NCBI GenBank assembly: GCA_964576435.1 | Contig: CAZNUP010000001.1 | Span: forward strand, 442,259 to 506,258 | Length of the DNA stretch: 64,000 nt | DNA from: an uncultured Gammaproteobacteria bacterium | Lineage (GTDB): Bacteria; Patescibacteriota; Microgenomatia; JAMCZE01 | Reading direction: 5' to 3' | Shown here: positions 4,855-54,286 of the stretch, piece by piece | Layout of the letters: each line of letters starts with the position of its first letter | Position numbering within the stretch: position 1 is the first letter of the stretch | Translations under genes and position numbers: made by a program | The notes under the pieces: model-generated | What the model was told of the DNA's origin: nothing | The model's input: only the letters and a program-made list of their open reading frames with translations | Databases searched by the model: none

Positions 4855-4855
4855 T

Positions 4856-7324: not shown

Positions 7325-7336
7325 GTTTATTCTGTC

Positions 7337-7367
7337 TTAGGAATGAACTTAATAATGCTGATATAAT
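7337..7367 (+). promoter_or_regulatory. Extended -10 promoter (TGaTATAAT) 6 nt upstream of the ATG at 7374; apparently leaderless
   Basis: TG at 7359-7360 and TATAAT at 7362-7367. Weak -35 (TTAGGA/AGGAAT). No room for an SD. Confidence 0.4.
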
Positions 7368-7373
7368 TTCTCT

Positions 7374-10743: not shown

Positions 10744-10745
10744 AT

Positions 10746-12302: not shown

Positions 12303-12967
12303 TGACAATATTAGTAGTCATTCCCGCCTTTAATGAACACGGAAAAATTCAGGAAACTATTCGTGATCTCAAAAAAAATGGATATAAAAATATGGTTGTC
12401 GTTGACGATGGGTCAAGTGACCAAACAGGGAAGCTCGCTAAAAAGGAAAATGTTGAAGTTTTAACCCATATAGTAAATAGAGGCCTAGGTGCTGCTTTGG
12501 GAACAGGTTTTGAGTATGCTAAAGAAAATGAACCAGATATCTTAGTTACCTTCGATGCCGATGGACAGATGCAAGCAAAAGACATAAAGGCACTTGTAAA
12601 ACCAATTGAAGAAAAAAAAGCCGATGTCGTGATTGGATCGCGTGCCTTAGATCAAAAAAACATGCCTCCAGTTAGAATAGTTCTCAATTGGATAAGTAAC
12701 TTTGCGACACTTATCCTTTATGGTGTCTGGACCACTGATTCTTTATCTGGTTTTAGATCCTTTGATAAAGACGCGTATAATAAGATTCAAATAAAGACAG
12801 ACCGCATGGAAGTGAGCAATGAGTTTTTTAAAGAGATAAAGAGAAATAATTTAAAATTTGTTGAGATCCCTATTAAAGCAATTTATACAGATTACAGTAA
12901 AAAGAATTCCAAAAACTCCGACCCATTTGATATTGGCTTTAAACTACTGTTAAGATTGTTCAGATAA
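12302..12967 (+). CDS. GT2 polyprenyl-phosphate sugar synthase (GtrB/DPM1-like)
   Basis: ILVVIPAFNEHGKI...VVVDDGSSDQT and TFDADGQ DxD. Confidence 0.7.
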   Translation: MTILVVIPAFNEHGKIQETIRDLKKNGYKNMVVVDDGSSDQTGKLAKKENVEVLTHIVNRGLGAALGTGFEYAKENEPDILVTFDADGQMQAKDIKALVKPIEEKKADVVIGSRALDQKNMPPVRIVLNWISNFATLILYGVWTTDSLSGFRSFDKDAYNKIQIKTDRMEVSNEFFKEIKRNNLKFVEIPIKAIYTDYSKKNSKNSDPFDIGFKLLLRLFR

Positions 12968-12968
12968 T

Positions 12969-13298
12969 ATGTCTTTATTACAAATTTTTCTAACTATTTT
13001 CCTTGTTTTTGCCCTAAGTAGAGTAGTTCTTAGATTTAAAGATAGAAAAATAAAACCAGTTGAGTTTGCCTTTTGGAGCATTCTTTTTAGTGCTGCAATT
13101 GTCGGTGTGATTTTGCCAGAAGAAACCACTAGATTTGCGAAATTACTTGGAATCGGCCGCGGTGTTGATCTCATTGTTTATGCTTCAATAGCAACTCTTT
13201 TTTACTTGGTCTTCAGACTTTATATTCTTCTCGAAGACGTGAGACATGAAATTACTAATTTGGTTCGTGAACTTGCTCTTAAAGATAAGAAAAAATGA
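12969..13298 (+). CDS. Small membrane protein, DUF2304-like (often partnered with GtrB-like GT2)
   Basis: 109 aa with 3-4 TM and a C-terminal amphipathic ...VRELALKDKKK. Sits immediately after the GtrB-like gene. Confidence 0.45.
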   Translation: MSLLQIFLTIFLVFALSRVVLRFKDRKIKPVEFAFWSILFSAAIVGVILPEETTRFAKLLGIGRGVDLIVYASIATLFYLVFRLYILLEDVRHEITNLVRELALKDKKK

Positions 13299-15368: not shown

Positions 15369-16125
15369 CTCCAAGCTTTGGGATGGACTTTGGAAAAATC
15401 ATGCTCCTGAAAATTACGCTTCCACTCTTTTAAAGTCAGAGTCACATGGGATTAGATGGCAAAGAATTAAAAAGACTGTAATCAAGAATCACAAATCATT
15501 TAAAAATCTTCGTGTCATAGAAATTGGTGCTGGAACTGGAGTTAATTCACTACTTATGGCTAAACAAGGGGCAAGGGTAACAATTCTAGATTATTCTGAA
15601 GAAGCCTTAAAAAAAGCAAAAAAAGTCTTTAAGAATGAGAAAACCCCCGCTACTTTTGTGTTGGCGGATGCTTTCCATCTTCCAAAAAAACACCTCAAAA
15701 GATATGACATTGCAATGTCCTTTGGCTTAGCGGAACATTTCCTAGGGAAAAAACGACAAGCGATATTTAATGCACATTTTAATCTATTAAATAAAAATGG
15801 CATTGCTATTATTTCGGTTCCCAACTCATGGAATTTGCCCTATAGAGTGTCCAAGTTTATTGGGCAAATGACACCATATTGGAAAGTGGGTGGGGAGTAC
15901 CCATTCACAAGGAAAGAATTAAAAAATATCTGTAAAGTCAGTAAAGTCACTAATTTCAGTTTCATCGGTGACTCTCTAATTACCTCGTTAAATTTTATTA
16001 ACCCTTTTTGGATTATGCAAAGAGTTAAAAAGAAACCACACAAAGTTTTAAAAAAAGAAATTGGCACGCCCTTAGATGAATATCTAAGCTACTCCTTAGT
16101 TCTTGTTGCAAAGCATGCTATTTAG
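15322..16125 (+). CDS. Class I SAM-dependent methyltransferase
   Basis: VIEIGAGTGVNS motif I. Confidence 0.6.
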   Translation: MPKYKSKFMKKQPQTSSKLWDGLWKNHAPENYASTLLKSESHGIRWQRIKKTVIKNHKSFKNLRVIEIGAGTGVNSLLMAKQGARVTILDYSEEALKKAKKVFKNEKTPATFVLADAFHLPKKHLKRYDIAMSFGLAEHFLGKKRQAIFNAHFNLLNKNGIAIISVPNSWNLPYRVSKFIGQMTPYWKVGGEYPFTRKELKNICKVSKVTNFSFIGDSLITSLNFINPFWIMQRVKKKPHKVLKKEIGTPLDEYLSYSLVLVAKHAI

Positions 16126-17521
16126 TTCGCCAATTTTTATTTTTCTTTTCCTGCCTCTTGTTTTCTTCACTTATCAATTTGTTCCTAGAAGATTTAAAAA
16201 TCTTCATCTTTTAATTGCAAGTCTAATTTTTTATTCATTAGGGGAACAAAAATTAGCATTAGTTTTAATAGTTTCAACTTTAACAAACTATTTTTTAGCA
16301 AAAAAACTAACCAAAGGAAAAGCTAAAAAGAAAATCCTAATTATTGGAGTAATTTTCAATCTCGGCATATTAATTTCCTTCAAATATTTATCATTTTTTA
16401 CATTGAATATAAATATTCTCGCTAGTTATTTCCAAATACCACCGCTTAACATTCCGTCTTTGCCGTTACCATTAGGTGTTTCTTTCTATACCTTCCACAC
16501 TCTTTCATATCTTTTTGATATTTATAGAAAAAAGGCTAAGCCTGCTAAAAGCATTATCGACTTTGCACTCTATGTCTCTTTCTTCCCACAGTTAATAGCA
16601 GGCCCCATCATTCGTTATCATGATATTTCAAGCCAGCTTGTAAAAAGAATTGTCACAAACGACAAACTGCAATATGGCATAACTAGGTTTATCCAAGGGT
16701 TGGCAAAGAAAGTTCTGATTGCCAACTCTATTGGTTTAGTTGCAGATGCAATTTTTGCTTCTCCTGTAGCTAATCTAAATCCAGCTTTAGCCTGGTTTGG
16801 TGTAATTTGTTACGCTCTTCAAATTTATTTTGACTTTTCAGGTTATTCAGATATGGCAATTGGGCTTGGAAAAATGTTTGGGTTCGATATTTTGGAAAAC
16901 TTTAACTACCCTTATATTTCACAGTCGATTACTGAATTTTGGCGCCGTTGGCATATTTCATTGTCAAATTGGTTCAAGGATTATGTCTACATTCCTCTTG
17001 GAGGCAATCGCGGAGGCACATTAAAAACAGTTAGAAATTTAATGATAGTCTTTCTTCTCTGTGGCTTTTGGCACGGGGCTAGTTGGAATTTTATAGTTTG
17101 GGGCGCTAGCCAAGGAGGGTTTTTAGTTATTGAACGTCTTGGTTTAAAGAAGATCACAGACTCACTGTGGTGGCCGTTAAGACATGTATATGCCTTAACA
17201 ATTATTCTAATAAGTTGGGTATTCTTTAGATCGATTTCTCTTGATTATGCACTCCACTTTATTGCTAAGCTATTTAATCTTGGTCAAAATTCTTCACCCA
17301 CCTTGAACATAAATATATATTTAACACCCCAGTTCATTTTGATACTTGTTCTCGGAGTGATATTTTGTACACCTATCTGGCAAAAACTGCAAAACAAGAG
17401 ATTTAGTCTCACACCTGCGTTTAACTTCACATACCACACGCTTTTAATATTTTTATTTCTCTTGACTCTTATGCACTTAGCAACCGCAACCTACAGCCCA
17501 TTTATATATTTTAGATTTTAA
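16103..17521 (+). CDS. MBOAT family membrane O-acyltransferase (AlgI/DltB-like)
   Basis: FYTFHTLSYLFD, FPQLIAGPIIRY and FWRRWHISLSNWFKDYVYIPLGGNRG motifs. Confidence 0.85.
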   Translation: MLQSMLFSSPIFIFLFLPLVFFTYQFVPRRFKNLHLLIASLIFYSLGEQKLALVLIVSTLTNYFLAKKLTKGKAKKKILIIGVIFNLGILISFKYLSFFTLNINILASYFQIPPLNIPSLPLPLGVSFYTFHTLSYLFDIYRKKAKPAKSIIDFALYVSFFPQLIAGPIIRYHDISSQLVKRIVTNDKLQYGITRFIQGLAKKVLIANSIGLVADAIFASPVANLNPALAWFGVICYALQIYFDFSGYSDMAIGLGKMFGFDILENFNYPYISQSITEFWRRWHISLSNWFKDYVYIPLGGNRGGTLKTVRNLMIVFLLCGFWHGASWNFIVWGASQGGFLVIERLGLKKITDSLWWPLRHVYALTIILISWVFFRSISLDYALHFIAKLFNLGQNSSPTLNINIYLTPQFILILVLGVIFCTPIWQKLQNKRFSLTPAFNFTYHTLLIFLFLLTLMHLATATYSPFIYFRF

Positions 17522-17523
17522 AA

Positions 17524-18651
17524 GTGAAGCAAGCAAAATACATTTTAAATAATTTCTTCGTTTGTCTATTTTTATTCATTATTTGCCTTCCTCTTTTGCA
17601 AATGATCTTTAAATTTGTCCCGGAGTATAAAAATACTGAAAAAAGAGAATTAACAACTTTTTCTTTATCAGAAAATTCCTCTCCTTGGGATTTAGTTAAC
17701 AACTTTACTAACTTTTTTAATGATAATTTTGGTTTTAGAACTTGGCTTATTCACAATAATACTTATTTAACTGCAAAATATTTAAGAACATCAGCTATTC
17801 CTTATGTGACAATTGGTAAAGACGGTTGGCTATTTTATACATCGGAATCACTTGATGATGGGCAAAGTACAAATGATTATCAAGGTTTAGTTCCACTAGA
17901 TAATTCTAAATTGGAAGCAATATTAGAAAATTTATCTAGGTTAGATAGAAATTTAGAAGAAAAGGGAATTATTTTTATGGTTTTAGTAGCACCTAACAAG
18001 CAAACTATTTATGGAGACTATTTGCCTGACAATCTATCAAAACGTGGTCACGAGACGAGGTTCGATCAGATAAAAAGGTTTTTGGTGGGAAAAGATATCA
18101 ATTTTCTTGAAGTTCGTTCAATTCTACAAAATCCTCCAGAAAACTACCCCACTTTTTATAAAACAGACACCCATTGGAATACTTATGGTGCTTATCTAAC
18201 GGCAAAATTGCTAATGGAGGAGTTAAACAAAATTGATCCTAAAGTTGAAAAAATTAAAAATCAAAATTTTACCTTTGATAGGATGAATGACATTGAGTCT
18301 GGCGATATAGCTACGATGCTTTCACTGGAAGAGTTCTATAAAGATGAAGATATTTCTATAAAGTCCAAAAACAAAAATGAGAACAAACTAAATACCAAGC
18401 TCCAAACCTATAAAAATGGCATAAGCGGGTTTCGTATTAAATCAAAGAATGACAACGGACAAAAAATAATCGTTTTTAGTGATTCCTACGGAGCGAAACT
18501 AATACCATTTATTTCTCCACATTTTACAAGTAGCCTATTTTTAGGTGGTGGAAAATACCGAGTTGATGAAAATATTGTGGATTCAGAAAAACCGGATATT
18601 GTTGTTTGGGAAGTTGCAGAAAGGTTTGTCAATCTTCTTTCAAATCCCTGA
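17524..18651 (+). CDS. AlgX/AlgJ-like (DHHW family) SGNH-like O-acyl transfer partner of MBOAT
   Basis: N-terminal signal/TM and YKTDTHWNTYGAY (DxHW signature of the AlgJ/AlgX N-domain). Located directly after the MBOAT gene. Confidence 0.6.
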   Translation: MKQAKYILNNFFVCLFLFIICLPLLQMIFKFVPEYKNTEKRELTTFSLSENSSPWDLVNNFTNFFNDNFGFRTWLIHNNTYLTAKYLRTSAIPYVTIGKDGWLFYTSESLDDGQSTNDYQGLVPLDNSKLEAILENLSRLDRNLEEKGIIFMVLVAPNKQTIYGDYLPDNLSKRGHETRFDQIKRFLVGKDINFLEVRSILQNPPENYPTFYKTDTHWNTYGAYLTAKLLMEELNKIDPKVEKIKNQNFTFDRMNDIESGDIATMLSLEEFYKDEDISIKSKNKNENKLNTKLQTYKNGISGFRIKSKNDNGQKIIVFSDSYGAKLIPFISPHFTSSLFLGGGKYRVDENIVDSEKPDIVVWEVAERFVNLLSNP

Positions 18652-18688: not shown

Positions 18689-19513
18689 ATGGCAGATGTA
18701 CTAGTTATCAAACCTCAAACAACTTGGTGGAAAATAAATATACGCGAACTATGGAACTATCGTGAACTGCTTTATATCCTAACTTGGCGTGATGTCAAGG
18801 TTAGATATAAACAGACGGTTCTTGGGGTGTTTTGGGTTGTCATCCAACCATTAGCAACCACCGGTATTTTCAGCATTTTCTTTGGCCAAATAGCAAAGAT
18901 TCCCTCAGATGGTATGCCTTACCCTTTGTTTGTGTTTTTAGGTTTGACTCTTTGGAACTTTTTTTCAAGCGGGGTTTCTGCAGCAAGTAACAGTATTCTC
19001 TCAAATCAAGGCCTGGTACAAAAAATCTACTTCCCACGCATTATCATTCTTGCCTCAGCAATCTTAACTTCGGGTGTAGATTTTCTAGTGAGCTTTTGTT
19101 TATTGATTGTAGCCCTGCTTTTTTATGGCTACATTCCAAATATTGGTCAAGTTTTAATTTTCTTCCCAATCATTTTCCTACTGCTTTTTATGTTGATGTT
19201 AGGTATTGGAATGCTTTCTTCTTCAGTCAATGTAAAATATCGCGACGTTCGTTATCTTTTGCCTTTTGCTATTCAATTAGGCCTTTATGTAAGTCCAATT
19301 ATTTATCCTTACTCAGCAGTAACTGGTTTTAAAAAAACACTTTTAGCCTTTAATCCTCTAACAGGAATTATTGAAGCGTATAGATCGGTGTTAACAAATA
19401 CCCCTGTCAATTTGCCACTTTTAGGAATTGCCGCTGTGGTCTGCGTTGTCTTTTTTGTGGCCGGTCTTTGGTACTTTAGACAAGTTGAATCATATTTTGC
19501 AGATATCGCATAA
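18689..19513 (+). CDS. ABC-2 type polysaccharide export permease (Wzm/TagG/KpsM-like)
   Basis: 274 aa with 6 TM and the ABC-2 signature region RDVKVRYKQTVLGVFWVVIQPL. Confidence 0.7.
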   Translation: MADVLVIKPQTTWWKINIRELWNYRELLYILTWRDVKVRYKQTVLGVFWVVIQPLATTGIFSIFFGQIAKIPSDGMPYPLFVFLGLTLWNFFSSGVSAASNSILSNQGLVQKIYFPRIIILASAILTSGVDFLVSFCLLIVALLFYGYIPNIGQVLIFFPIIFLLLFMLMLGIGMLSSSVNVKYRDVRYLLPFAIQLGLYVSPIIYPYSAVTGFKKTLLAFNPLTGIIEAYRSVLTNTPVNLPLLGIAAVVCVVFFVAGLWYFRQVESYFADIA

Positions 19514-19516
19514 CTT

Positions 19517-20767
19517 ATGGAAACAGTAATCAAAGTTGATCATCTTTCAAAAAAATATAAAGTTGGCGCTAAAGAAGATTATCTGACCTTACGTGACCAA
19601 ATTGCCAAACTAGGCCAATTTCCAAAGTCTCTACTAAGGTGGAATCATGGAGAAGATTTAAAAACTCATGAGTTTTGGGCCTTAAAAGACCTTAATTTCG
19701 AAGTAAATAAAGGTGAAGTAATGGGAATCATTGGTAGAAATGGTGCCGGTAAAAGTACTCTCCTTAAGGTCTTGTCAAGGATCACTGCCCCCACAGGTGG
19801 CCAGGCAACAATTAATGGTAAGGTCATAAGCCTCTTAGAGGTAGGGACCGGTTTTAGTGCTGAAATGACGGGCAGAGAAAACATCTATCTAAATGGCACC
19901 ATCATGGGTATGACCAGAAGTGAAATTAAGCGCAAATTTGATGCCATTATTGATTTTTCAGGAGTCGAAAAGTTCATGGACACACCTGTAAAGTTTTACT
20001 CAAGCGGCATGTACATGCGTCTAGCCTTTTCAGTGGCAGCTCATTTGGAATCAGACATAATGCTTGTTGATGAAGTCTTAGCTGTTGGCGACATCGAGTT
20101 TCAAAAGAAAAGCATGAACAAAATGGAAGAAGTAACAAGAAATAGTGGTAAGACCATTATTTTTGTAAGTCATAATCTGGGGGCAATCCAAAACTTATGT
20201 CATAGGTCAATTCTTCTCAAAGAAGGTCAAATTGATGATATTGGAAAAACTTCAAAAGTTGTCGCCAAATACATTGGCGAGACTACTAAACTTATGAAGA
20301 TTGATTTGAGTAAAAGAAAAGACAGGGATGGTAATGGGAAAATAAGAATAACTAATGTTGATTTTTTTGATTCCAAAGGTAAACCAGTTAAGAATCTAGT
20401 AACTGGTGAAGACTTCACTGCAATTGTGAAGTATAAAGTCTTCGATAGGTCAATAAAATCAATCAACTTTTCGATGCCAATTGATGAGACCGTTTATGGT
20501 AATAGACTATTCCACTTATCAAGTAGTTGGCTAGGTCAAACAATAAAGGTGACAGGATCAACCGGTGTTATAAAAGTTCATTTTAAAAAGATTCCTTTAA
20601 TTGCCGGTAACTATAGTTTCAATGTTTGGGTCGATTACCATGGAGAAATGCTAGATTGGGTTCAACAAGCAGGAAACTTCGACGTAACTTTTGGCGACTA
20701 TTACAATTCTGGCAAACAGCCAGATGCAAGCCAAGGCTCCGTTCTAGTTGACTATATAATTGAGTAA
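19517..20767 (+). CDS. ABC transporter ATP-binding protein (Wzt/TagH-like) with a roughly 170-aa C-terminal extension (putative glycan-binding domain)
   Basis: Walker A GRNGAGKST, signature YSSGMYMRLAF (Wzt/TagH-type) and Walker B LVDE. Residues from about 250 onward are a beta-rich extension. Confidence 0.8.
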   Translation: METVIKVDHLSKKYKVGAKEDYLTLRDQIAKLGQFPKSLLRWNHGEDLKTHEFWALKDLNFEVNKGEVMGIIGRNGAGKSTLLKVLSRITAPTGGQATINGKVISLLEVGTGFSAEMTGRENIYLNGTIMGMTRSEIKRKFDAIIDFSGVEKFMDTPVKFYSSGMYMRLAFSVAAHLESDIMLVDEVLAVGDIEFQKKSMNKMEEVTRNSGKTIIFVSHNLGAIQNLCHRSILLKEGQIDDIGKTSKVVAKYIGETTKLMKIDLSKRKDRDGNGKIRITNVDFFDSKGKPVKNLVTGEDFTAIVKYKVFDRSIKSINFSMPIDETVYGNRLFHLSSSWLGQTIKVTGSTGVIKVHFKKIPLIAGNYSFNVWVDYHGEMLDWVQQAGNFDVTFGDYYNSGKQPDASQGSVLVDYIIE

Positions 20768-20770
20768 ACT

Positions 20771-22498
20771 ATGCGCATCTTTATATTAGATACCTATGTT
20801 TATGGTGCAGTTTTAGAAAATTTCTATCAAAACTTTGATGTAAAGAATAAAACATACAGCGAGGTAATGTCTGGAATTTTTTCTCTTGAGTTTGGCACGT
20901 CTAATTTTTATTCTAAGAACCTCAATAAATTAGGTCATGTCTCTCAGGAATTTATTTTCAACGACTTAATTTCTCAATCAATATGGGCTAAAGAAAATGG
21001 AATCAATCTTTTTTTTGATAAGCTCCGAAAAAAAGATTGGAAGGAAAAAATTCTTCTTGCCCAAATTAAGAAGTTTGAGCCGGATGTGGTTTACAGTCAA
21101 GATTTGTGGGTTATAAATCCAAAATTTGCCAAAGAAATAAAAAAACATACTAAGCTTTTGGTCGGACAAATTGCTTCTCCAATGCCACCGGTTGAAAACA
21201 TTAAATCTTTTGATTTGATTCTTACGTCCTTGCCTCATTTTGTAGATAAATTTAAATCCCAAGGTGTCAAATCTGAATACTTCCGAATTGGTTTTGAGGA
21301 GTCGTTATTATCAAAACTCGGCAAAAAGACCCACAAATATGATGTGTCTTTCATAGGCGGTTTTGGTCCAATGCATAAAAAGGGCATTACCGCCCTAGAG
21401 TCTTTGGCTAAAGAAGTTTCAGTGGATTTTTGGGGCTATGGTGAGGACGGGTTACCAAGTGACTCAGCTATTCTTAAATCATTCCATGGATTTTCCATAG
21501 GTTTAGATAACTATAAAATTCTCAATGCTTCAAAAATTGGCATTAATAGACACATTGACGTAGCTGAAGACTACGCTAACAACATGAGACTTTTTGAAAC
21601 CACAGGAGTTGGGGCAATGCTTATTACAGATTCCAAGAAAAACATTGGTGATCTTTTTGTTCCCGGAAAAGAAATAGAAACATATTCCTCTCCGAAAGAA
21701 CTCATAACTAAAGTCAAATATTATTTGAAACACGACAAAGAACGCGAAAAAATCGCTAAGGCAGGTCAAATGCGGACTTTAAAAGACCATACATATTTTC
21801 GCCGGATGGAGGAATTGGCAGAAATTTTGGAAAGAAATCTCGTGGTCAATCTAAAAGACTCATGGCAAGATCCAGGTATCCCAGAAAAACAATGGGAGAC
21901 TGTGTCTAAAGAGTTGGAAAACATAAATACTGTGCCACCCTTCAAGTCTCTAGTTGAGCTAATAAAGCCACTAGATCTTTCAGAGAAATCAAAAGTTTTG
22001 GAAATAGGTTGTTCTAGCGGTTATTATAGTGAAGTTTTAAAAAAATCTGACATAAATGTTTCTTATGAAGGGTGTGACTATTCCGAACCTTTTATAAATT
22101 TTGCAAAAGAGAAGTTTCCTAAAATTCCATTCAGGGTCGCCGATGCGACAAATTTGCCTTACAAAGATAAGGAATTTATTCTAGTTATTTCTGGTGGGTG
22201 TATTTTGCATATTCCTGATTGGAAGAAAGCAATATCTGAATCTGTTCGTGCGTCATCTTCGTATGTAATTTTCCATAGAACTCCAGTTACAAAACTATCA
22301 AAAACCCATACCTGGACAAAATCTGCCTACGGAGTAGATATGCTTGAACATGCGTTTAGCGAAAAGGACTTATTAGGTGAATTTAAGAAGAATAAATTGA
22401 AAGTTGTTAAAATTACGTCCCAAGGAGACTTTGCTATAGAGGAACTTGGAAAAACTAAAATTATAATGAAAAGTTATCTTTGTAAAATTTCCAAATGA
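20771..22498 (+). CDS. Fusion of a CgeB-like glycosyltransferase (Glyco_trans_1_2/DUF3880) and a class I SAM methyltransferase
   Basis: N-terminal VSFIGGFGP...[15 protein letters not shown]...[10 protein letters not shown] resembles the CgeB family. C-terminal [13 protein letters not shown] methyltransferase motif I. Confidence 0.5.
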
Positions 22499-23985
22499 CC
22501 AGATATTTTTGCACTCTTTTTGACAAGAACTATCTAACACGTGGTTTGGCTCTATATACGTCTTTAGAAAAACATTCTCCAAACTTCAAATTGTTTGTTC
22601 TTTGCATGGATGAAGTCACTTTTGATTTTTTGACAAAATTAAAAAAAGCCAACATAACACCAATTAGGCTTAGTGATTTTGAAGACAAGGAACTTTTAGC
22701 AGTTAAATCTACACGAAATGCAGGTGAATATTGCTGGACCTGCACACCATCTCTTCCGTTGTTTATATTTAAAAAATATCCAAAAATTTCTGAGATTACC
22801 TATTTGGATTCAGATCTTTTCTTTTTTTCCTCGCCAGAACCTATTTTTGATGAATTAGGCTCCAAATCAATAGGAATTATCCCGCACAACTTTTCCAAGC
22901 CTCTATTAGAGAAGTACCCAACTATTCAAAAAACTAGTGGTATTTATAATGTGGGTCTTTTAGTTTTTAAGAATAATAAAGAGGGACTTGAGTGCCTAAA
23001 TTGGTGGAGAGATAGGTGTCTTGAATGGTGTTATGCAGATTATAAGGATGGAAAAATGGGAGATCAGTTATATTTAAACGATTGGCCTGAAAGATTTTCT
23101 TCGGTTTGTGTGATCAAAAATCCGGGTGCTGACTTAGCTGGATGGAATTTAGATAACTACAAATTAACTTTTAAGAACGGTTCTATTTTAGTCGATAATA
23201 AACCACTAATTTTTTACCACTTCCACATGGTGGATATTTATAAAGATGGGACCTTTGATATTAGATTCTACAATTTATCTGAGGAAGTAATATTAAATAT
23301 CTATTTACCATTTATAAATGCAGTCAAAGAAGAATTCCCAAAAGATTTTGAATTTGGTTATGCACATAAACCTACTTTTTCAGAAAAAATAAATTTAAAA
23401 ATAAATTACGTGTTTGGTCAAATGAAAGCACCCGTGTTAAAGTTGTTGGTAGTAGGTCGTAATTTATTTATGAAATTATTAGCAGACATTTATCATATTT
23501 TTTCACCTGACAAAGGTTATCATGTGGCTAGAACCGCTTCTCTTAATAATAAAAAATTAATAAAGGTTGGAAATGGTGCTGATATTCAAGATTATGTGGT
23601 AATTAGAGCATTCACTAAAGGTGTAGATATCGGCAAAAACACTCAGTTGAATCCTTTTACTGTTATATACGATCACGAAAAAATCACTATTGGTGACGAT
23701 GTAATGGTGGGTCCCCATGTCATGATTGCTTCAGGAAATCACGACTTCAAACAAACCGAAAAACCAATGCGCTTTGCGGGAAACCTTACTAAAGGGCCAA
23801 TTTCTATTGGAAATGGAGTCTGGATCGGAGCCAATTCAGTGATTACAGACGGGGTAAAAATTGGAGAAGGGGCTCTTATAGGAGCAGGAACCGTGGTTAC
23901 TAAAGATGTGCCAGCCTATGAGATTATTGTCGGTGTACCTGGAAAATCAATAGGAAACAGGAAAAAACTTCGATGGACAAAGTAA
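22495..23985 (+). CDS. Fusion of a GT-A-like glycosyltransferase (DxD) and a left-handed beta-helix (hexapeptide) acetyltransferase
   Basis: N-terminal [17 protein letters not shown] and YLDSDLFFF (DxD). C-terminal [35 protein letters not shown] hexapeptide repeats. Confidence 0.55.
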
Positions 23986-24749
23986 GCGTCATCATTCCAA
24001 CCTTTAATCGAGCCAAATTTTTAAAAAAAACCATCAAAAGTGTTTTAGATCAAACCTATCCAGTTTATGAAGTTATTGTTTGTGATGACGGCTCCACTGA
24101 TTCTTCGAAAAAAGAAATAGAAAAAATTGCTGACAAAAGAGTTCTTTGGTCAAATGCAGATCACTCAGGTTTGCCAGCAGTCGGCAGAAATAGAGGCGTA
24201 AAACTTTCTAAAGGTGATTGGATTGCATTTTTAGATAGTGACGACAGTTGGGAAGAAACTAAGTTAGAAAGGCAATTTAAAGCGCTTAATGATTCGAAAA
24301 ATTACCAAGCAAGTTCCACCAATGCGACTAATGCCGAAATGTCCCTAAACAAAAAAACTATTGATTTTGATGTTTTGAAAAACAATAACTATATTGTTTG
24401 TAGTTCAGTTTTAATCAAAAAAGCTATTTTTGACAAAACTGGATTATTTTCAGAGAAACCAACCTTGAAATCTATCGAGGATTATAATTTGTGGCTTAAG
24501 ATTTCCCTATTTTCACCGTTTGTTTATTTACAAGAAAAACTAGTACAATACACAAAAGATAACCCTGACAGTGTAAGGTCAATCTACACTTCTGAAGAGG
24601 TTTGGAAGCAGCGTCGTGAAATTTGGCGAGATTTGAAAAATTGGAGCAAATCTGCGAATCTTTCTAACTCACAGAAGCTTAAAATTTGGCAAAATTATTT
24701 ACGATACGAGATTAAAGGAATTGCCCATGACACCACCACCAAAGTTTAA
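23973..24749 (+). CDS. GT2 family glycosyltransferase
   Basis: [14 protein letters not shown]...[12 protein letters not shown] and LDSDD. Confidence 0.75.
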
Positions 24750-25419
24750 ATCTAAAAGTAGACTAACTGGAAAATATCCAAACCCTTCAGAAGGGTTTTT
24801 AGGCAATAACTTAGAACTTAACAACTGGGTTATTTCGGAATTTATAACGAAAGAAATAATCCCTGTTGTTGATACTCATCCATTTCCAATTCCTGAAATA
24901 TACATAATGGTGGGAGCCGTTACTTATTTTAATCCCGATGTGGTTTTTGAGTGGGGAACAAACGTGGGAAAATCAGCTCGCATTTTTTATGAAATAAAAG
25001 AGAAATTTGGCCAACCATTCGACCTATATACAATTGATTTGCCGGACTCAGAGAGTCACGAAGAGTTACCACATAATGATCAATTTGCCCACTTTATTAA
25101 AAACCTGCCAGTAACTTCTTTAAGAGGTGACGGCTTAGAAACATCTTTAAATATTTATAAAGAAAAGTATTCCAAGTCAAAAGCGCTATTTTTCTTGGAT
25201 GGTGATCACGCCGAAGATTCAGTAACAAGGGAGCTGTCTGGAATCTTTGAATCCTGTTCAAATCCTTGTGTCATTATCCATGATACCTTTTTTCAAACTA
25301 ATCCTAACTATAATATTGGTCCGCACAAAGCAATTCAAAGTTTTTTGAAAAGTGATAAAAAGAGAAAAATACTTCTGGAAACTAATTACGGCCTGCCCGG
25401 CATGACCGTACTTATATGA
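24721..25419 (+). CDS. Class I SAM methyltransferase, CmcI/TylF-like sugar O-methyltransferase candidate
   Basis: WGTNVGKSARI and FLDGDHAEDSV...VIIHDT resemble the Methyltransf_24 / CmcI family. Confidence 0.45.
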   Translation: MPMTPPPKFKSKSRLTGKYPNPSEGFLGNNLELNNWVISEFITKEIIPVVDTHPFPIPEIYIMVGAVTYFNPDVVFEWGTNVGKSARIFYEIKEKFGQPFDLYTIDLPDSESHEELPHNDQFAHFIKNLPVTSLRGDGLETSLNIYKEKYSKSKALFFLDGDHAEDSVTRELSGIFESCSNPCVIIHDTFFQTNPNYNIGPHKAIQSFLKSDKKRKILLETNYGLPGMTVLI

Positions 25420-27128
25420 AAATTGGCCTTTTAGTCAACGCTACTGGAAAATATATTTATTTTACTTATCTTCTCTGGGAATCAGTTCAAAAATATTTTT
25501 TCAAAATTCCAAATGTTCAGGTGGAGATGTTTATTTTTACGGATTCAGATGAAGTACCCAAAGGAACTAAGAGAATTTTTCAAGAACATAAGGCTTTCCC
25601 GTATGCAACACTTCTTAGATATCATTATTACTCAAACAACAAGAAAATTTTATCAGACATGGACTACCTTTTTTATTGTGACGCCGACATGGAGTTTGTA
25701 GCCCCTGTGGGAGAGGAAATTTTAGGTGAATTGGTTGGCACAATCCATCCAGGCTTTTTTGAAAGAAACAGATCAGATTTTAGTTACGAGCCCAATCCAA
25801 AATCTAAGGCTTTTATTCCAAAAAACAAAGGATCACATTATTTCTGTGGAGGCTTTAATGGAGGGACTTCTAAGGACTTCTTACTTCTTTGCGATAAGTT
25901 GAAAGAAAATATAGATAAAGATTTAAAAAACAATATTATTGCTATCCACAATGACGAAAGCCACTTGAATCGCTATTTCGTGGATCATAAGCCCACAAAA
26001 ATTCTAGACCCTTCCTATTGTTTCCCAGAAGAACTAACAGAAAAGTTTCAGTCAACTAAAGGAAAGTTATCAGCAGACCCATATACTTGGTTCCCAAAAA
26101 GCCTCAAAAAGTTTGCAACAAGCCCAAGACTCATAGCGAAGTATAAAAACCATGAGGCTTTTAGATATGGCCGTGTAGAGGGTTCGGCTAGACGCGTTGT
26201 CAATGAGACGAAGCGTTTTGCATTTTTGTCTTTGGTGGCTGCTAGATCATTTCCAAGTAGAGTTAAACATGTTTCAAGTAGAGTAGTGTTCAATATATCA
26301 AAAGATCACCCAGAAATATTTACTAGAAATTTTTACAACATTCCATTTTCAAAAGTGTTTCATTTAAATTGTAATGTAGATTTGTTAGAAAAAAATAATA
26401 ATTTACTAGACCTCGTAACCATTGGCTTTAATAATTCGGATGTTATTGAAACGCAAATTAAACTTTTGAATAAAAATTTAACTGATAAATTCTTTTATAC
26501 AGTTGCAGATAATTCATCTAGCACAAAGATAAGTAAAGAAATACAGAACATTTGTGCTAAATATAAGGTGGGTTATATTAAATTACCTCCTAATTTTTTT
26601 AGCGACAAAGGTCTTGGTAACCTTTCACATGGTTCAGCCATGACTTGGGTATTCAAAAACTATATTAAAAAAAGAAACCCAAGATATTTTGGCTTCTTGG
26701 ATCATGACATGTTCCCTATTAAAAAAACTAGTTTGGTTAAATATTTTAAAGCCTCGCCGGTAATTGGGTTTAAACAACCCAGAGAAAACTATTGGTATTT
26801 ATGGGCAGGTTTTTGTTTTTTTGACATGGAGTTTGTTGGTAAAAGAAATTTGGATTTCTTATCTAAGAAATACGGAAATCAAAGACTGGATACTGGAGGG
26901 GCAAACTGGGAGAAAATATATTGTGATGTTGACGCAGATAAATTACCTTCTTTTAAACATAGGTACCTCAATCTAACTGGGGGAGAAATAGCCCAACATG
27001 ATATGGTGGAGTTTTATGGAGATTGGCTGCATTTATTTAATGCCTCTAATTGGTACGCAATGGATGATTTAAAATTTGAAAAACGCTCCAAAGCTTTAAA
27101 AAAACTAATTCACAAATATGTTACTTGA
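25416..27128 (+). CDS. Two-domain glycosyltransferase: an N-terminal GT6 family alpha-1,3-Gal/GalNAc-transferase-like domain and a C-terminal second GT-A-like domain
   Basis: N-domain aligns by eye with vertebrate ABO/alpha3GalT across all core blocks: IGLLVNATGKYIYF, MDYLFYCDADMEF (DxD), TIHPGFF, HYFCGGFNGG, HNDESHLNRYF and KPTKILDPSYC. C-domain has TIGFNNSDVIE...FLDHDMFP (DxD). Confidence 0.75.
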   Translation: MKIGLLVNATGKYIYFTYLLWESVQKYFFKIPNVQVEMFIFTDSDEVPKGTKRIFQEHKAFPYATLLRYHYYSNNKKILSDMDYLFYCDADMEFVAPVGEEILGELVGTIHPGFFERNRSDFSYEPNPKSKAFIPKNKGSHYFCGGFNGGTSKDFLLLCDKLKENIDKDLKNNIIAIHNDESHLNRYFVDHKPTKILDPSYCFPEELTEKFQSTKGKLSADPYTWFPKSLKKFATSPRLIAKYKNHEAFRYGRVEGSARRVVNETKRFAFLSLVAARSFPSRVKHVSSRVVFNISKDHPEIFTRNFYNIPFSKVFHLNCNVDLLEKNNNLLDLVTIGFNNSDVIETQIKLLNKNLTDKFFYTVADNSSSTKISKEIQNICAKYKVGYIKLPPNFFSDKGLGNLSHGSAMTWVFKNYIKKRNPRYFGFLDHDMFPIKKTSLVKYFKASPVIGFKQPRENYWYLWAGFCFFDMEFVGKRNLDFLSKKYGNQRLDTGGANWEKIYCDVDADKLPSFKHRYLNLTGGEIAQHDMVEFYGDWLHLFNASNWYAMDDLKFEKRSKALKKLIHKYVT

Positions 27129-27939: not shown

Positions 27940-28861
27940 AGACATAGAAAAAGTTAAAAAAGCCGCCAATCGTTTTGGTAAAGTTGTTGTCTGGGGCTTG
28001 AAGTCACATGACAGAGATAGTTTTAGGTATATTCAAAACCATTTCTATACCACTTTACAAAAGTTGGGGATCAACTCAGTTTGGTTAGACGACGAAATAG
28101 ACAACAATAATTTGGTGGAGAAAGGAGACATGGTTTGGGCTGCAAATGTTACAGGAAAGAATCTAAAACTTAAAAAAGATGTCTACTATTGTCTTCATAA
28201 TTATGACAAAGACTTTTATAAAGAATTAAACAAAAAAAACTACCTTATCGTCCAGGTTTATTCAAATGATGCCGACAAGGGGACACAGAAATGGGACTCT
28301 GTAACGAGATTTGATAGGAAAAACCAGGTCTTATATGAACCTTGGGGTACAAATCTACTCCCCTGGGAATTCAAAAACCCAGTATTTCCCAAATCTTCAC
28401 CATTTGTTTTTTGGGTGGGAAGCATTTGGAACAATGACCAAAATCAAGGAAATTTAGAAGAAATTGAAAAATTAAAGAAAGTTTTAGGAAAACATCATGT
28501 TTATTTTCTCCACCCTCGTTATGTCCCAGACTTTATTCATTGGCGTCTTATACGTTGGTCAAGAATCGCTCCAACTGTGGCAGGTAACTGGCAGGTCAAA
28601 GTAAACTATCTACCATGCCGCATGTTTAAGAATATTTCTTATGGGCAATTGGGAATAACCAATGTTAAAAAGTTTGAAGATCTCTTGGGCAGTTCTTTTA
28701 TTAAAAGCGATTCAATAGAAGATTTAGTAGAGAAATCGTTGGCTTTTTCAGAGAAAAAATATATTTCACTAGTTAAAGATCAGCAAGAAATCATAAAGAA
28801 ACAGACATATATGCAAAAAGTAATGAATCTTTTTAAGGGATTAGAAATTGTTTCTTCGTAA
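27914..28861 (+). CDS. Hypothetical protein, possibly a divergent GT-B fold glycosyltransferase
   Basis: FVFWVGSIWNN...HVYF and RMFKNISYG are loosely reminiscent of GT-B C-terminal domains. No firm family assignment. Confidence 0.3.
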   Translation: MEDRQNHAKDIEKVKKAANRFGKVVVWGLKSHDRDSFRYIQNHFYTTLQKLGINSVWLDDEIDNNNLVEKGDMVWAANVTGKNLKLKKDVYYCLHNYDKDFYKELNKKNYLIVQVYSNDADKGTQKWDSVTRFDRKNQVLYEPWGTNLLPWEFKNPVFPKSSPFVFWVGSIWNNDQNQGNLEEIEKLKKVLGKHHVYFLHPRYVPDFIHWRLIRWSRIAPTVAGNWQVKVNYLPCRMFKNISYGQLGITNVKKFEDLLGSSFIKSDSIEDLVEKSLAFSEKKYISLVKDQQEIIKKQTYMQKVMNLFKGLEIVSS

Positions 28862-30372
28862 TGCTGACAAAAACTCTTTATCGCGCGACCATAATCCTCA
28901 TAATTTTATTTTTCTTACTTAAACCATTTTTCTTAGGCTTTTATCATGATGATTGGTCAACTATTGTGGGAACTGTTGTTAAAGGAAGTCCATTTAGTCT
29001 TGATCTTTTAAGTTCTTCAATTCAAGTCTTGTTGTCCAGACCGGTTAGTGGTCTGGTCTTGTTTTCTTTTGCGTCCATAGCTGGAAAGTCTCCGCTCATC
29101 TGGCAATTCCTAACATCCCTATTGGTCTTATTAGGAATCTATGTCTTTTCCAAATTTCTTTCATCTCTAGTCAAATCTTTAAAACTAGAGACGTCTTGGG
29201 AAGAAACTGCTGCATTTGCTGCTTTATTTTTCGCTTTACCTTGGATGGCTGGAGCAACATTCTTCGTAGTTGCTGCTATTTGTGCATTGACTGCAACCTT
29301 ATTTTTTCTTTTATCAGGAATTTCATTATTAAATTACATAAATACGAAGAAGACGAAATGGCTTATTGGGGTAGGAGCATTTTATTTACTAAGTATCCTA
29401 ACCTATGAAGCGTTTTATTTACAATTTATACTTCTAACTCTTCTTGGGACCATTGTTTTAAAGGCAAAAAAAGAAAAAATATCTAATCTAGTTTTAGTTT
29501 TTATAGTTTTAGCCGTCGCTCAATTATTAGGTATAGCCTGGAATCGGTTCACCTTTTCCCTCGCCCCTGCTTCAAAAAGTATTAATCCTGATTTCTTACC
29601 GCTATTTTTATATACCTTAAGAGTTATTCCAGAAAGGTTTCTTTTTAACTTTAAGGAAATATATAGTTGGGCATTTTTATCGCTAATTGCCTACATTTTA
29701 TACACATTAGTTATTTTAAAATCTCTGTTTAGGAAATCATTTCCATTGGGAGTGTCCACATTGTCATTTATTTGTTTAGCAATTTTGGGAATTTGTTTAT
29801 CTGTTTTTCTTTATGCCCTTGCTGGATACGGAGTCGACGCCCATGGGTTAACATCCCGCACAACGTTAGTAATTAGCTTCTATATAATCCTTGCAGTATT
29901 TGTAATACAAGTTTCAAGTAGGTCAATTAACTCGGATGTAAAAATTTTTTATAACTTGACGTTTTGGTTAGTAGTTTTAGCTATTTTTACGAGTTTAATA
30001 TGGCGCTTCCGTGATTGGAAAGTTTCCTGGAGAGAACAAACTTCTGTTATTTCATCTTTTCCAAAAGAAAATTTCAAAAACGCACCAAAAGACACAGTCA
30101 TTATCTATAAAGGTCCTTTTGAATATAATGGCTTAACAGTTTTTCAGTCGTCTTGGGATCTAGCAAGTGCCATAAATTATTCTTATCCGGGTTTAAATCT
30201 TACAGTTCTTCCAAGTCCCGATGTCTGGGCGATAAATTGGGATGGCAAAAATTTAACTCAAATTGCTAAAGGAAACAAATCCACTTTGTGGTCAGGGGAA
30301 ACAAAAAATGTTTGGTTGTGGAATTATCCAAATAAAAATGTTACTAAACTAAATAAGAAATATGCAGAGTAA
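28861..30372 (+). CDS. Polytopic membrane protein with a C-terminal extracytoplasmic domain (unknown; candidate GT-C or polymerase)
   Basis: At least 10 predicted TM helices in the first 380 aa, then a soluble domain. TAATG overlap with the upstream gene. Confidence 0.35.
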   Translation: MLTKTLYRATIILIILFFLLKPFFLGFYHDDWSTIVGTVVKGSPFSLDLLSSSIQVLLSRPVSGLVLFSFASIAGKSPLIWQFLTSLLVLLGIYVFSKFLSSLVKSLKLETSWEETAAFAALFFALPWMAGATFFVVAAICALTATLFFLLSGISLLNYINTKKTKWLIGVGAFYLLSILTYEAFYLQFILLTLLGTIVLKAKKEKISNLVLVFIVLAVAQLLGIAWNRFTFSLAPASKSINPDFLPLFLYTLRVIPERFLFNFKEIYSWAFLSLIAYILYTLVILKSLFRKSFPLGVSTLSFICLAILGICLSVFLYALAGYGVDAHGLTSRTTLVISFYIILAVFVIQVSSRSINSDVKIFYNLTFWLVVLAIFTSLIWRFRDWKVSWREQTSVISSFPKENFKNAPKDTVIIYKGPFEYNGLTVFQSSWDLASAINYSYPGLNLTVLPSPDVWAINWDGKNLTQIAKGNKSTLWSGETKNVWLWNYPNKNVTKLNKKYAE

Positions 30373-41033: not shown

Positions 41034-41047
41034 GATATAATAAATAA

Positions 41048-53697: not shown

Positions 53698-54286
53698 AGA
53701 TAAGTACGGAAACAAGCTCACAACTAAAGAAGCCCTGCCGAAAATTAATAATAGGATAGGTAGCTATATGCTCGATCTTGAGCTCATGATTTTGACCTTT
53801 GTTGGCAATATCCCTTCCCATTCTCTAAGAAGACTGTTTTATAGATCTGCAGGCATGAAAATAGGCAAGGGAACAAATATTCATATGTGGGCAAGGTTTT
53901 ATGAGCCCAAAAATATTGAAATTGGTGAGGATTCTCTTATTGGAGATAATGCATTTTTGGACGGCAGAGATAAGCTAAAAATTGGTAATCATGTAGGGAT
54001 TGCTTCACAAGTTCTTATCTATAACTCAGAGCACAACGTTAATTCAGAAGAATTCGAAGGCATCTATGGTCCAGTAGAAATTGGTGACTACGTTTTTATT
54101 GGCCCCAGAGTGACTATATTACCAGGTGTAAAAATTGGTAAAGGTGCAGTTATAGCGGCAGGAGCTGTAGTTACAAAAGATGTTCCCGAATTTGCTATAG
54201 TTGGCGGCGTGCCAGCGACAAAGATTAGTGACCGCAAGAATAAAGATCCCAAATATGTTCTTGGAAGGGCTCGCTTGTTTCAATAA
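53690..54286 (+). CDS. Hexapeptide-repeat (LbH) sugar O-acetyltransferase (WbbJ/WcaF-like)
   Basis: Tandem hexapeptide repeats [36 protein letters not shown]. Confidence 0.75.

Follow-up and report, generated by a model that had tools for sequence, protein, structure and literature searches.

Does the gene that directly follows wzt in this locus make the end cap that licenses a surface glycan for export? The gene order raises the question: genes for an ABC-2 permease (wzm), an ATPase (wzt) and a glycosyltransferase-methyltransferase (GT-MT) fusion follow one another with intergenic gaps of 3 nt each, and in E. coli O9a (wbdD) and K. pneumoniae O12 (wbbB) the terminator gene lies directly after wzt. 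A first-pass annotation had likened the fusion to WbdD, the chain terminator of E. coli. The window, by which we mean the whole 64-kb stretch of DNA that was analysed, contains 56 ORFs, nearly all of them glycan genes. The coordinates of the four ORFs described at first pass (Wzm, Wzt, the fusion and a Wzx-type flippase) were confirmed exactly, and all four are on the plus strand (Table 1). The next gene (22495) overlaps the end of the fusion gene by 4 nt; wzm, wzt and the fusion form a translationally packed segment within a surface-glycan island of very large size. A promoter and terminator scan gave counts at or under shuffled expectation, an Rfam search returned zero matches, a repeat search found chance-level repeats only, and none of nine proteins tested reached an NCBIfam family cut-off.

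To judge from sequence, the host probably belongs to the Candidate Phyla Radiation (CPR), because its nearest named relatives are Woese-, Gottesman-, Kerfeld- and Nealsonbacteria and its contig measures 0.7 Mb. The best matches in GTDB species representatives had 40-49% identity, and a 1565-aa MutS-domain protein, used as a query for homologues, retrieved itself alone. It is probably not diderm, and the product is therefore probably not an LPS O antigen.

Table 1. Genes and protein domains of the glycan island discussed in the text, with window coordinates and the matches that define them.
Feature	Coordinates	Strand	Length or residues	Evidence
Wzm, ABC-2 type permease of glycan exporter	18689-19513	+	274 aa	PF01061 ABC2_membrane, 1e-19, residues 27-235
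Wzt	19517-20767	+	416 aa	
Wzt, nucleotide-binding domain	19517-20281	+	residues 1-255	PF00005 ABC_tran, 6.9e-21, residues 56-187
Wzt, carbohydrate-binding domain	20282-20767	+	residues 256-416	PF14524 Wzt_C, 1.2e-19, residues 268-391 (nt 20318-20689)
GT-MT fusion	20771-22498	+	575 aa	
Fusion, GT-B glycosyltransferase domain, CgeB-like	20771-21841	+	residues 1-357	PF13524 Glyco_trans_1_2, 5.9e-30, residues 209-350
Fusion, helical linker (fusion junction)	21842-21970	+	residues 358-400, about 40	AF2 helices 361-366, 370-384, 389-398
Fusion, class I SAM-dependent methyltransferase domain	21971-22498	+	residues 401-575	Methyltransf_11, Methyltransf_25
GT8-like domain fused to hexapeptide acyltransferase	22495-23985	+		Hexapep, 3e-17; Glyco_transf_8, 1.4e-6
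CmcI/rhamnosyl O-methyltransferase-like protein, alternative capping candidate	24721-25419	+		PF04989, 2.8e-9
Wzx-type (MOP family) flippase, second export route	36053-37327	+	424 aa	PF01943 Polysacc_synt, 7.3e-25; Polysacc_synt_3, 6e-19
Wzy_C (O-antigen-ligase/O-OTase-like) fused to PMT_2 GT-C	54286-57396	+	1036 aa	PF04932, 2.3e-14; PF13231, 7e-15
Bac_transf phosphoglycosyl transferase	61513-62154	+		PF02397, 6e-59

The transporter, which serves a surface sugar polymer, is an ordinary ABC-type exporter and the textbook part of the system. The first-pass annotation had described an ABC-transporter-dependent module of Wzm plus a Wzt with C-terminal extension, and Pfam, profile and fold matches all bear this out. 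The permease gene adjoins the ATPase gene, and the ATPase has intact motifs on a nucleotide-binding domain (NBD) of Wzt/TagH type: Walker A (G73-T81), the signature Y161-S-S-G-M165, Walker B (D185-E186) and H219 are invariant in a 32-homologue alignment, and a phmmer search of the PDB returned Aquifex Wzt (8dku) as best match at 1.4e-63, followed by TarH/TagH. Wzm shares 53% identity with its counterpart in locus L084 and 41-46% with those in L085, L092 and L069. Together, Wzm and Wzt are an ABC exporter moving completed polyprenol-linked glycan across the cytoplasmic membrane.

The C-terminal extension of Wzt is a genuine carbohydrate-binding domain (CBD) of the Aquifex type. It scores 71.1 bits against a cut-off of 30.4 in the Wzt_C family, and in the AF2 monomer model it forms an all-beta sandwich of 8 strands (pLDDT about 90); Foldseek aligned the Wzt model to full-length Aquifex Wzt (8dku) over 413 columns at 2.2e-39. 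A single-sequence search of the PDB with the CBD gave no match and a profile search was needed; this matched the isolated Aquifex CBD crystals 8dky and 6o14 at 6e-8 and left the E. coli O9a and R. terrigena CBDs unmatched. The resemblance to Wzt CBDs proposed at first pass is thus upheld; the extension is beta-rich, as described, but is about 160 rather than roughly 170 residues long. The Aquifex CBD, the sole PDB match of the profile, binds methyl sugars; its Trp362 stacks on the 3-O-methyl cap (PMC9445017), and W381 of the window Wzt (nt 20657-20659) aligns to this residue. The Aquifex pocket residues I299, L300, T346 and A348 correspond to M320, P321, N369 and a gap, leaving the Trp as the only one kept.

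The gene after wzt does fuse a CgeB-like GT with a SAM methyltransferase, as first described; its product is a complete GT-B glycosyltransferase joined to an intact methyltransferase (MT), with conserved motifs in both. The Pfam match to PF13524 covers the C-terminal lobe only, but in the AF2 model (pLDDT 92) the GT part is a complete two-lobed GT-B with two Rossmann lobes. Its best Foldseek matches are GT4-type GT-B enzymes (7qsg, PglA, MshA and HepE, at about 1e-9 to 1e-10), the motif A269-N-N-M-R-L-x-E276 and residues G279, G281 and D287 are invariant in a 25-homologue alignment, and the domain is 47-57% identical to stand-alone GTs of 366-373 aa. The linker corresponds to the boundary between separate GT and MT genes in relatives, which overlap there by 4 nt. 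In the MT domain, Methyltransf_11 (residues 410-494, 3.9e-14) and Methyltransf_25 (4.7e-14) both match from about residue 403, and the Methyltransf_23 match (1.2e-8) extends to residue 547. The SAM-binding residues are in place, with motif I (L410-E-I-G-C-S-S-G417), D436 and D458 invariant in 25 homologues. The best PDB matches of this domain are generic methyltransferases (6uak, 5e-13); the glucose O-MTase 6uv6 was found at 1e-3 with the whole fusion and at 2e-4 with the MT domain alone, and the domain is 44-48% identical to the GT-adjacent stand-alone MTs of L091, L084 and L089. Assembly error does not explain the fused ORF, because three independent assemblies yield an identical 575-aa product. 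The protein probably adds and methylates a sugar.

What the fusion shares with WbdD is its position and general logic; kinase and coiled coil are absent, and no similarity in sequence or fold was detected. No WbdD chain in the PDB was found at E<=0.1 with the whole fusion or at E<=10 with the MT domain alone, and none appears among the best 50 Foldseek matches, and the protein was rejected as a WbdD homologue on these searches. The first-pass annotation had suggested looking for kinase or coiled-coil features in this product, and neither was found: Pfam gives no kinase match, the AF2 model consists of GT-B, linker and MTase only, its helices reach about 18 residues at most, and the C-terminus is made of MTase beta-strands. 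A crude heptad scan for a coiled-coil ruler in all 56 ORFs of the window gave segments of at most 36 aa in unrelated proteins and none in these genes, and an ORF with a weak APH hint (49500-50489, minus strand) had no meaningful PDB match. Membership of the WbdD family is refuted, and we give almost no credence to the literal analogy, a true WbdD-family terminator with a molecular ruler, even though the fusion has a methyltransferase domain and is encoded downstream of wzt.

The family to which the fusion does belong is widespread, with more than 800 detected members, and a literature search on GT-MT enzymes of the PF13524/CgeB type found no characterised one. Cassettes of a CgeB-like GT (PF13524) and a class I MT are full-length homologues of the fusion at 35-57% identity, and most fused homologues are 600-1400 aa long with extra MT or TPR domains. 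This family is mostly unrelated to ABC exporters: Wzm-Wzt was found within 8-10 kb of none of 62 fused homologues, at least 12 of the 62 lie beside flagellar genes in flagellar glycosylation loci, and locus L095, where the ABC exporter is absent, has two fused paralogues 4 kb apart, an arrangement easier to reconcile with a general 'add a methyl-sugar' module than with a dedicated terminator. Within the family, NJ trees of both domains place the window protein in a clade of adjacent GT and MT gene pairs; it arose independently from two adjacent genes, which are separate in all close relatives. Seven of the 15 other clade loci, from CPR, Omnitrophota and Eubacteriales, have a Wzm-Wzt with C-terminal extension at most 10 kb from the gene pair (in one of the seven the Wzm-Wzt pair is truncated at the locus edge), as does L004, a related alphaproteobacterial locus outside the GT clade.

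The relatives of Wzt give a further view. The closest, in L084, is 57% identical and stands in the order wzm-wzt-MT-GT-MT, and the cassette is absent from three of the five closest, which have FkbM-type MTases instead. CBD identity to the window is 32-36% in these three loci versus 18-26% in most cassette loci, and a test for co-variation of CBD and cassette among the relatives found none.

The rest of the island supplies candidates for other steps. The coexistence of a Wzx flippase with the ABC exporter, pointed out at first pass, is confirmed by the Polysacc_synt match and recurs in relatives that are probably CPR; Wzx has about 9 hydrophobic segments, and synteny with L075, a Cand. Gottesmanbacteria locus, extends over the trio of a membrane protein (34564), Wzx and a GT2 (37233); L075 has a Wzt fragment and the GT1_2 gene as well. 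The N-terminal domain of the 22495 product co-occurs with the GT1_2(+MT) cassette in L091 (47%), L084 (56%) and L069 (41%). The 24721 product matches the NCBIfam rhamnosyl O-MTase at 5e-8, far under the cut-off. The Wzy_C/PMT_2 protein may be a candidate for the extracytoplasmic transfer step, and the Bac_transf protein is a candidate initiating enzyme that we would assign to this pathway.

Based on this analysis, we can propose how the segment might work. The fusion would extend the growing chain by one sugar at its non-reducing end and O-methylate that sugar, and the methylated terminal sugar would block elongation and create the epitope read by the Wzt CBD before export, with a logic as in Geobacillus wzm-wzt-wsaE and E. 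coli O8 WbdD. In the absence of a coiled-coil ruler, kinetics or some other factor would have to determine chain length. The exported glycan would be handed to its acceptor by a Wzy_C/GT-C type enzyme, and the many PMT_2 (GT-C) paralogues may add further decorations, drawing on lipid-linked sugars. That the fusion makes an export-licensing end cap is plausible but unproven, and we put its chances a little short of even. The alignment of W381 with Trp362 and the exclusive match of the CBD profile to a methyl-sugar-binding domain hint at such a cap, and the intact enzyme domains, the wsaE-like gene order and the exporters near seven clade loci are consistent with it. Against it stand the exporter-free and partly flagellar surroundings of the fused homologues, including L095, the cassette-less Wzt relatives with their more similar CBDs, the loss of the Aquifex methyl pocket apart from the Trp, the absence of a ruler in the crude scan, and six further methyltransferases in the window (15322, 24721, 27118, 30362, 38075 and others). 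Because there is no detectable likeness to WbdD, the family lies mostly away from ABC exporters and CBD and cassette do not co-vary, we still infer the terminator role from gene position; it is a reasonable guess.

Much of this evidence would also suit an ordinary repeat-unit or side-branch enzyme that installs an internal methylated sugar, with any cap made by another enzyme of the island. A family usually found without ABC exporters and present in flagellin glycosylation islands, the two-paralogue locus, a CBD similarity independent of the cassette, the many other MTases, and cassettes lying 7.6 kb (L085) and 6.7 kb (L091) from wzt all point that way. That the fusion gene adjoins wzt would in this case reflect incidental operon packing, and alternative cappers could be the CmcI-like O-MTase or the MTases 27118 or 30362. 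However, in prototypes such as WsaE the terminator gene directly follows wzt (PMC2943079), and several phyla have the cassette near a CBD-type Wzt; we regard a repeat-unit role as possible, if doubtful. The CBD might also read no terminal cap and bind backbone sugars or tether the polymer, with no dedicated terminator at all, which would agree with the single conserved pocket residue and the missing ruler but is improbable given that the CBDs of all CBD-bearing Wzt studied to date recognise a terminal modification (PMC11231755, PMC9445017). Still less probable is a polymerising module for a polymethylated polysaccharide in which each sugar is methylated, as by mycobacterial methylmannose-polysaccharide (MMP) ManT/MeT, with Wzm-Wzt exporting the polymer: GT and MT do share a single polypeptide, and Foldseek ranks the MMP mannosyltransferase 7qsg first for the GT domain (1.8e-10), but this score is indistinguishable from those of dozens of other GT4 enzymes, and a heteropolymer is implied by the six or more further GTs that the co-directional block contains.

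Returning to the capping proposal, its widest form would have an uncultivated, probably CPR (monoderm) lineage keep a conserved glycan island in which a CBD-gated Wzm-Wzt is served by a new ruler-less capping class, a CgeB-like GT-B plus MTase adding a methylated terminal sugar, beside a conserved Wzx and many GT-C enzymes, while in other phyla the same cassette gives flagellin glycans terminal methyl-sugars. As a whole we consider this rather unlikely. To our knowledge, a coiled-coil protein has so far been regarded as a hallmark of the cap-and-export strategy; such a class would thus terminate chains and license export without one. If the fusion is the capper, it would be a third architecture in the polymerase-terminator model, one that lacks kinase, Kdo transferase and coiled-coil ruler alike, and it would assign a function to a large family that also populates flagellin-glycosylation islands. 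It would further show how CPR-like bacteria with tiny genomes make a heavy investment in a methylated surface glycan that takes both ABC and Wzx routes.

Among known systems, E. coli O9a/O8, identical to K. pneumoniae O3/O5, pairs WbdD with a CBD-bearing Wzm-Wzt (PMC3482155, PMC11231755). It shares with the window the C-terminal CBD of Wzt, a SAM methyltransferase gene just after wzt and, as proposed here, the logic of capping the non-reducing end, stopping elongation and licensing export. WbdD, however, lacks a GT and combines its MT (in O9a also a kinase) with a long trimeric coiled-coil ruler and a membrane anchor, whereas the window protein has a GT-B and neither kinase nor coiled coil. 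ORF6 of K. pneumoniae O7 also unites terminating MT and GT modules in an ABC-transporter-dependent pathway, but does so in about 1400 aa with an MT, a cryptic kinase, a CBM, a coiled coil and two GT2 modules (PMC11231755), compared with a GT-B linked to an MT in 575 aa here. For the transporter, Aquifex aeolicus WzmWzt (7k2t, 8dku, 8dky), whose CBD binds a 3-O-methyl-Man/Rha cap (PMC9445017), gives the best match to both NBD and CBD, whether by sequence, profile or fold; the methyl-stacking Trp is common to both proteins, but they are just 33% identical overall and differ at the remaining pocket positions, and the 'trap loop' region has 4 residues fewer in the window Wzt. The closest analogue of the whole segment, by description, appears to be the S-layer glycan locus of Geobacillus stearothermophilus NRS 2004/3a, with wzm-wzt-wsaE in that order and tight or overlapping junctions (PMC2943079). 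In WsaE two GT domains come after an N-terminal MT, whereas in the window protein one CgeB-like GT-B precedes a C-terminal MT. The Geobacillus pathway, in a monoderm, begins with a Bac_transf-type enzyme and ends with a Wzy_C-type transferase (PMC2943079), and both enzyme types occur in the window too, albeit 33-40 kb away. In both loci, wzm and wzt are followed by a single polypeptide that combines MT and GT, and the MT domain of WsaE makes a 2-O-methyl cap, which Wzt has been proposed to recognise (PMC2943079).

We can state firmly that the wzm and wzt genes of the window encode an ABC exporter with an Aquifex-type carbohydrate-binding domain (CBD), and that the gene behind them encodes a bifunctional enzyme that can both transfer a sugar and methylate. 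The first-pass annotation had called these three ORFs and a Wzx flippase; all four were recovered exactly as delimited there, on the forward strand, and Pfam bears out each of the domain calls. A 3-nt gap separates wzm from wzt and wzt from the fusion gene, and the next gene overlaps the fusion by 4 nt, so that wzm, wzt and the fusion form a tightly packed, co-directional block. No competing RNA family, repeat or promoter/terminator signal was found in the region. Three independent assemblies carry the fused ORF in identical form, so it is not an assembly artefact.

Features of the glycan island, with window coordinates or, for the domains of the fusion, residue numbers
Feature	Position	Strand	Size	Assignment and remarks
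Wzm	18689-19513	+	274 aa	Pfam ABC2_membrane, 1e-19
Wzt	19517-20767	+	416 aa	Pfam ABC_tran and Wzt_C PF14524 (residues 268-391, 1.2e-19, 71 bits; cut-off 30.4)
GT-MT fusion	20771-22498	+	575 aa	Pfam Glyco_trans_1_2, 5.9e-30; Methyltransf_11/25, about 1e-14
Fusion, GT-B domain	residues 1-357			Complete, two lobes (AlphaFold model)
Fusion, linker	residues 361-398			Three short helices (AlphaFold model)
Fusion, class I methyltransferase	residues about 401-575			Ends in beta-strands (AlphaFold model)
Wzx flippase	36053-37327	+	424 aa	Pfam Polysacc_synt, 7e-25
PMT_2 paralogues (eight to nine)	61-3128, 8188-12302, 39951-41033, 41932-43242, 54286-57396			GT-C, ArnT/PMT-like membrane glycosyltransferases
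Sugar-activation trio	3874-6585	+		GHMP kinase, NAD-dependent epimerase/dehydratase, GmhA-like SIS protein, in a row
GT2 and DUF2304 pair	12302-13298	+	221 and 109 aa	Short GT2, then small membrane protein
MBOAT and SGNH pair	16103-18651	+		MBOAT acyltransferase; AlgX-like SGNH protein with single N-terminal TM segment
GT8-acyltransferase	22495-23985	+		GT8-like domain and hexapeptide acyltransferase in one protein
GT6 protein	25416-27128	+		GT6 domain (residues 2-209), then about 360 residues without assignment, including a 'DHD' motif
Polytopic protein	28861-30372			No Pfam match
Polytopic protein	34564-36081			No Pfam match; N-terminal 'PDEQAH' loop motif
MutS-like ATPase	43266-47963	-	1565 aa	MutS domain V/ABC-like ATPase core (PF00488, 8e-25)
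Wzy_C-PMT_2 fusion	54286-57396	+	1036 aa	O-antigen ligase/O-OTase-like domain with PMT_2 GT-C
Split GT4	59478-59972, 59956-60465	+		N-terminal (Glyco_transf_4) and C-terminal (Glycos_transf_1) halves, 17-nt overlap, different frames

Residues 51-391 of Wzt align to full-length Aquifex aeolicus Wzt (8dku/7k2t; single-sequence phmmer, 1.4e-63) across the nucleotide-binding domain (NBD) and the C-terminal domain, and across 32 aligned homologues the residues of the Walker A, signature, Walker B and H-loop motifs do not vary. The AlphaFold model (pLDDT 85) has an NBD followed by an eight-stranded beta domain, and Foldseek ranked full-length Aquifex Wzt structures at the top (2e-39, 413 aligned columns). 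Searched alone against the PDB as a single sequence, the C-terminal domain gave no match; a 16-sequence CBD profile recovered the isolated Aquifex CBD crystals 8dky and 6o14 (6e-8) and no other relevant entry. Together with the Pfam match, these profile and fold matches substantiate the earlier proposal that the beta-rich extension is a Wzt-type CBD. The ligand of the Aquifex CBD is a 3-O-methyl-mannose/rhamnose cap, on whose methyl group Trp362 stacks (PMC9445017). The phmmer alignment with Aquifex Wzt puts W381 of the window Wzt at the position of this tryptophan, inside a family-wide D-W-[IV]-Q-x-A-G motif. The window Wzt does not conserve the remaining pocket residues (Ile299, Leu300, Thr346, Ala348) and has four residues fewer in the adjacent loop, so the ligand specificity of the CBD cannot be read from its sequence. 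Wzt proteins of NBD plus CBD architecture are extremely common (at least 8000, every scored candidate falling at E<=1e-3).

With 25 homologues as input, the fusion was modelled with high confidence (pLDDT 91.9). The model contains neither a kinase domain nor a terminal amphipathic helix, and its helices reach about 18 residues at most. By Foldseek its GT part resembles GT4-type GT-B enzymes (7qsg, PglA, MshA, HepE and BshA, about 1e-9 to 1e-10) and its methyltransferase (MT) part generic small-molecule and RNA methyltransferases. SAM motif I (L410-E-I-G-C-S-S-G417), D436 and D458 are invariant in the homologue alignment, as is the GT motif A269-N-N-M-R-L-x-E276; the SAM-binding residues expected of the MT domain have thus been kept, and from these invariant motifs both halves look catalytically competent.

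In neighbour-joining trees of either domain the window protein is nested in a clade whose other loci carry GT and MT as separate genes, adjacent in most and with a stop/start overlap of 4 nt in about half; its closest relatives there are L091, L089, L090 and L084 (L-numbers denote homologous loci in other genomes). The window protein is therefore an independent, recent fusion of such a GT and MT gene pair. The GT-tree clade has 15 other members, seven with Wzm-Wzt within 10 kb: L084, L085, L091 and L069 (Woesebacteria), L075 (Gottesmanbacteria, partial), L081 (Eubacteriales) and L064 (Omnitrophota). The Wzt C-terminal extension is present in six of these seven, L075 showing only a Wzt fragment at the locus edge. 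An alphaproteobacterial locus with separate genes (L004), grouped with the window by the MT tree alone, also has Wzm-Wzt. Three betaproteobacterial loci with separate genes that likewise group with it only in the MT tree (L077-L079; Herbaspirillum, Curvibacter and a Pseudomonadota MAG) have a fused TMD-NBD exporter of about 590 aa directly upstream of the pair (about 6210-9937) instead of Wzm-Wzt. The GT8-like domain encoded just downstream of the window fusion travels with the GT1_2 gene, with or without MT, in L091, L084 and L069.

The wider family gave 826 matches among the candidates scored, some of them fusions of 570-1000 aa with 35-45% identity, the others GTs of about 370 aa that stand alone and share 50-55% identity in the GT part. 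For gene neighbourhoods we sampled 80 loci from species-representative genomes and 12 further contigs, scoring their ORFs against the window Wzm, Wzt, CBD and fusion and against flagellar proteins. No Wzm-Wzt pair lay within 8-10 kb of any of the 62 fused homologues; at least 12 of them adjoin genes for flagellin, FlgK or FlgL, and the two inspected closely (L087, L088) both lie in classic flagellin-glycosylation islands. In the flagellar loci (L087, L088, L015, L028, L038, L044-46, L051, L055, L059 and L067) the neighbours also include dTDP-sugar genes and TPR-GT41 proteins, and the family may supply methylated sugars to flagellin glycans. One further glycan island (L095) holds two fused paralogues 4 kb apart (6201-8231, 676 aa; 10001-11992, 663 aa); it encodes a Wzy_C protein and lacks an ABC exporter.

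That the fusion caps the exported glycan is an inference with four grounds: the gene position, the recurrent neighbourhood in the separate-gene clade, the conserved methyl-stacking tryptophan and the analogy with known systems. On this reading the fusion would make a terminal cap, which the Wzt CBD would read. The family's wider distribution is no less compatible with a general cassette for adding a methylated sugar than with a dedicated terminator; we therefore hold the capping role tentatively, at a little under even confidence, and regard the installation of an internal or branch sugar as a doubtful but real prospect. That the CBD is not a cap reader at all strikes us as improbable, and slightly more improbable still is that the fusion is the polymerase of a polymethylated polymer. 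Among the five closest Wzt relatives, three (L092-L094) lack the cassette and have FkbM-type methyltransferases instead. Their CBDs are 32-36% identical to that of the window, against 18-26% in most cassette loci, only L084 (48%) and L085 (35%) lying above that range, so there is no sign that CBD specificity has co-evolved with the cassette. The closest Wzt relative overall is that of L084 (57% identity; gene order wzm-wzt-MT-GT-MT).

The first-pass annotation had instead likened the fusion to WbdD, but it is not a WbdD relative. The defining architecture of WbdD is an MT carried, in some cases together with a kinase, on a long coiled-coil ruler (PMC3482155), the coiled coil being 'a characteristic marker' of the strategy according to Kelly et al. 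(PMC11231755). WbdD was absent from the phmmer PDB matches of the whole protein (E<=0.1) and of the MT domain alone (E<=10), and from the top 50 Foldseek matches; the fusion has a GT-B domain and no kinase. The ruler was sought in the fusion model and, by a crude heptad scan, in the window's 56 ORFs, and was found in neither, leaving a literal WbdD-type terminator scarcely credible.

The proposed coexistence of Wzx with Wzm-Wzt is real in the window and conserved in relatives. Wzx lies in the next co-directional block (32604-43242). L075 has a Wzt fragment, GT11 and GT2, a GT1_2 gene and a syntenic run comprising a membrane protein like that at 34564, Wzx, GT2 and GT4, and in L092 a gap of 2 kb separates Wzm-Wzt from a downstream Wzx, after which come homologues of 38800, 41048 and 41932. 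Two export routes in one organism or island are not unusual, as in P. aeruginosa with CPA and OSA.

The entire 64 kb is devoted to glycan biosynthesis, with more than 20 glycosyltransferases, seven methyltransferase genes including the fusion, and a Bac_transf initiating enzyme. Directly upstream of wzm, the MBOAT and SGNH pair resembles AlgI/AlgJ-X or PatA/PatB and would O-acetylate the glycan on the extracytoplasmic side. The PMT_2 paralogues and the two polytopic proteins suggest extensive extracytoplasmic decoration from lipid-linked sugars; the GT2 of the GT2 and DUF2304 pair may make polyprenyl-phosphate sugars that would feed the GT-C enzymes, the DUF2304 protein acting as its small partner or as a flippase, and the Wzy_C-PMT_2 fusion is a possible glycan-to-acceptor transferase. 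The sugar-activation trio is suggestive of a nucleotide-activated heptose pathway. Either a frameshift has turned the split GT4 into a pseudogene or the split is an error of sequencing. The MutS-like protein, between two glycan blocks, is an orphan giant ATPase that retrieved only itself at E<=1e-10.

The best analogue of the wzm-wzt-fusion block is not WbdD but WsaE of Geobacillus stearothermophilus, where wzm, wzt and wsaE overlap, WsaE combines methyltransferase and glycosyltransferase domains, and its MT domain makes a 2-O-methyl cap, methylation in vitro being independent of chain length (PMC2943079). The nearest named relatives belong to CPR lineages, and the source contig measures 709,729 bp. 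A CPR host would be a monoderm; in that case an LPS O antigen is a less likely product than an S-layer glycan or one linked to protein or wall, which again points to the Geobacillus paradigm. The system is of a known kind, mildly unusual in that its candidate capper comes without a ruler and from an independent gene fusion.
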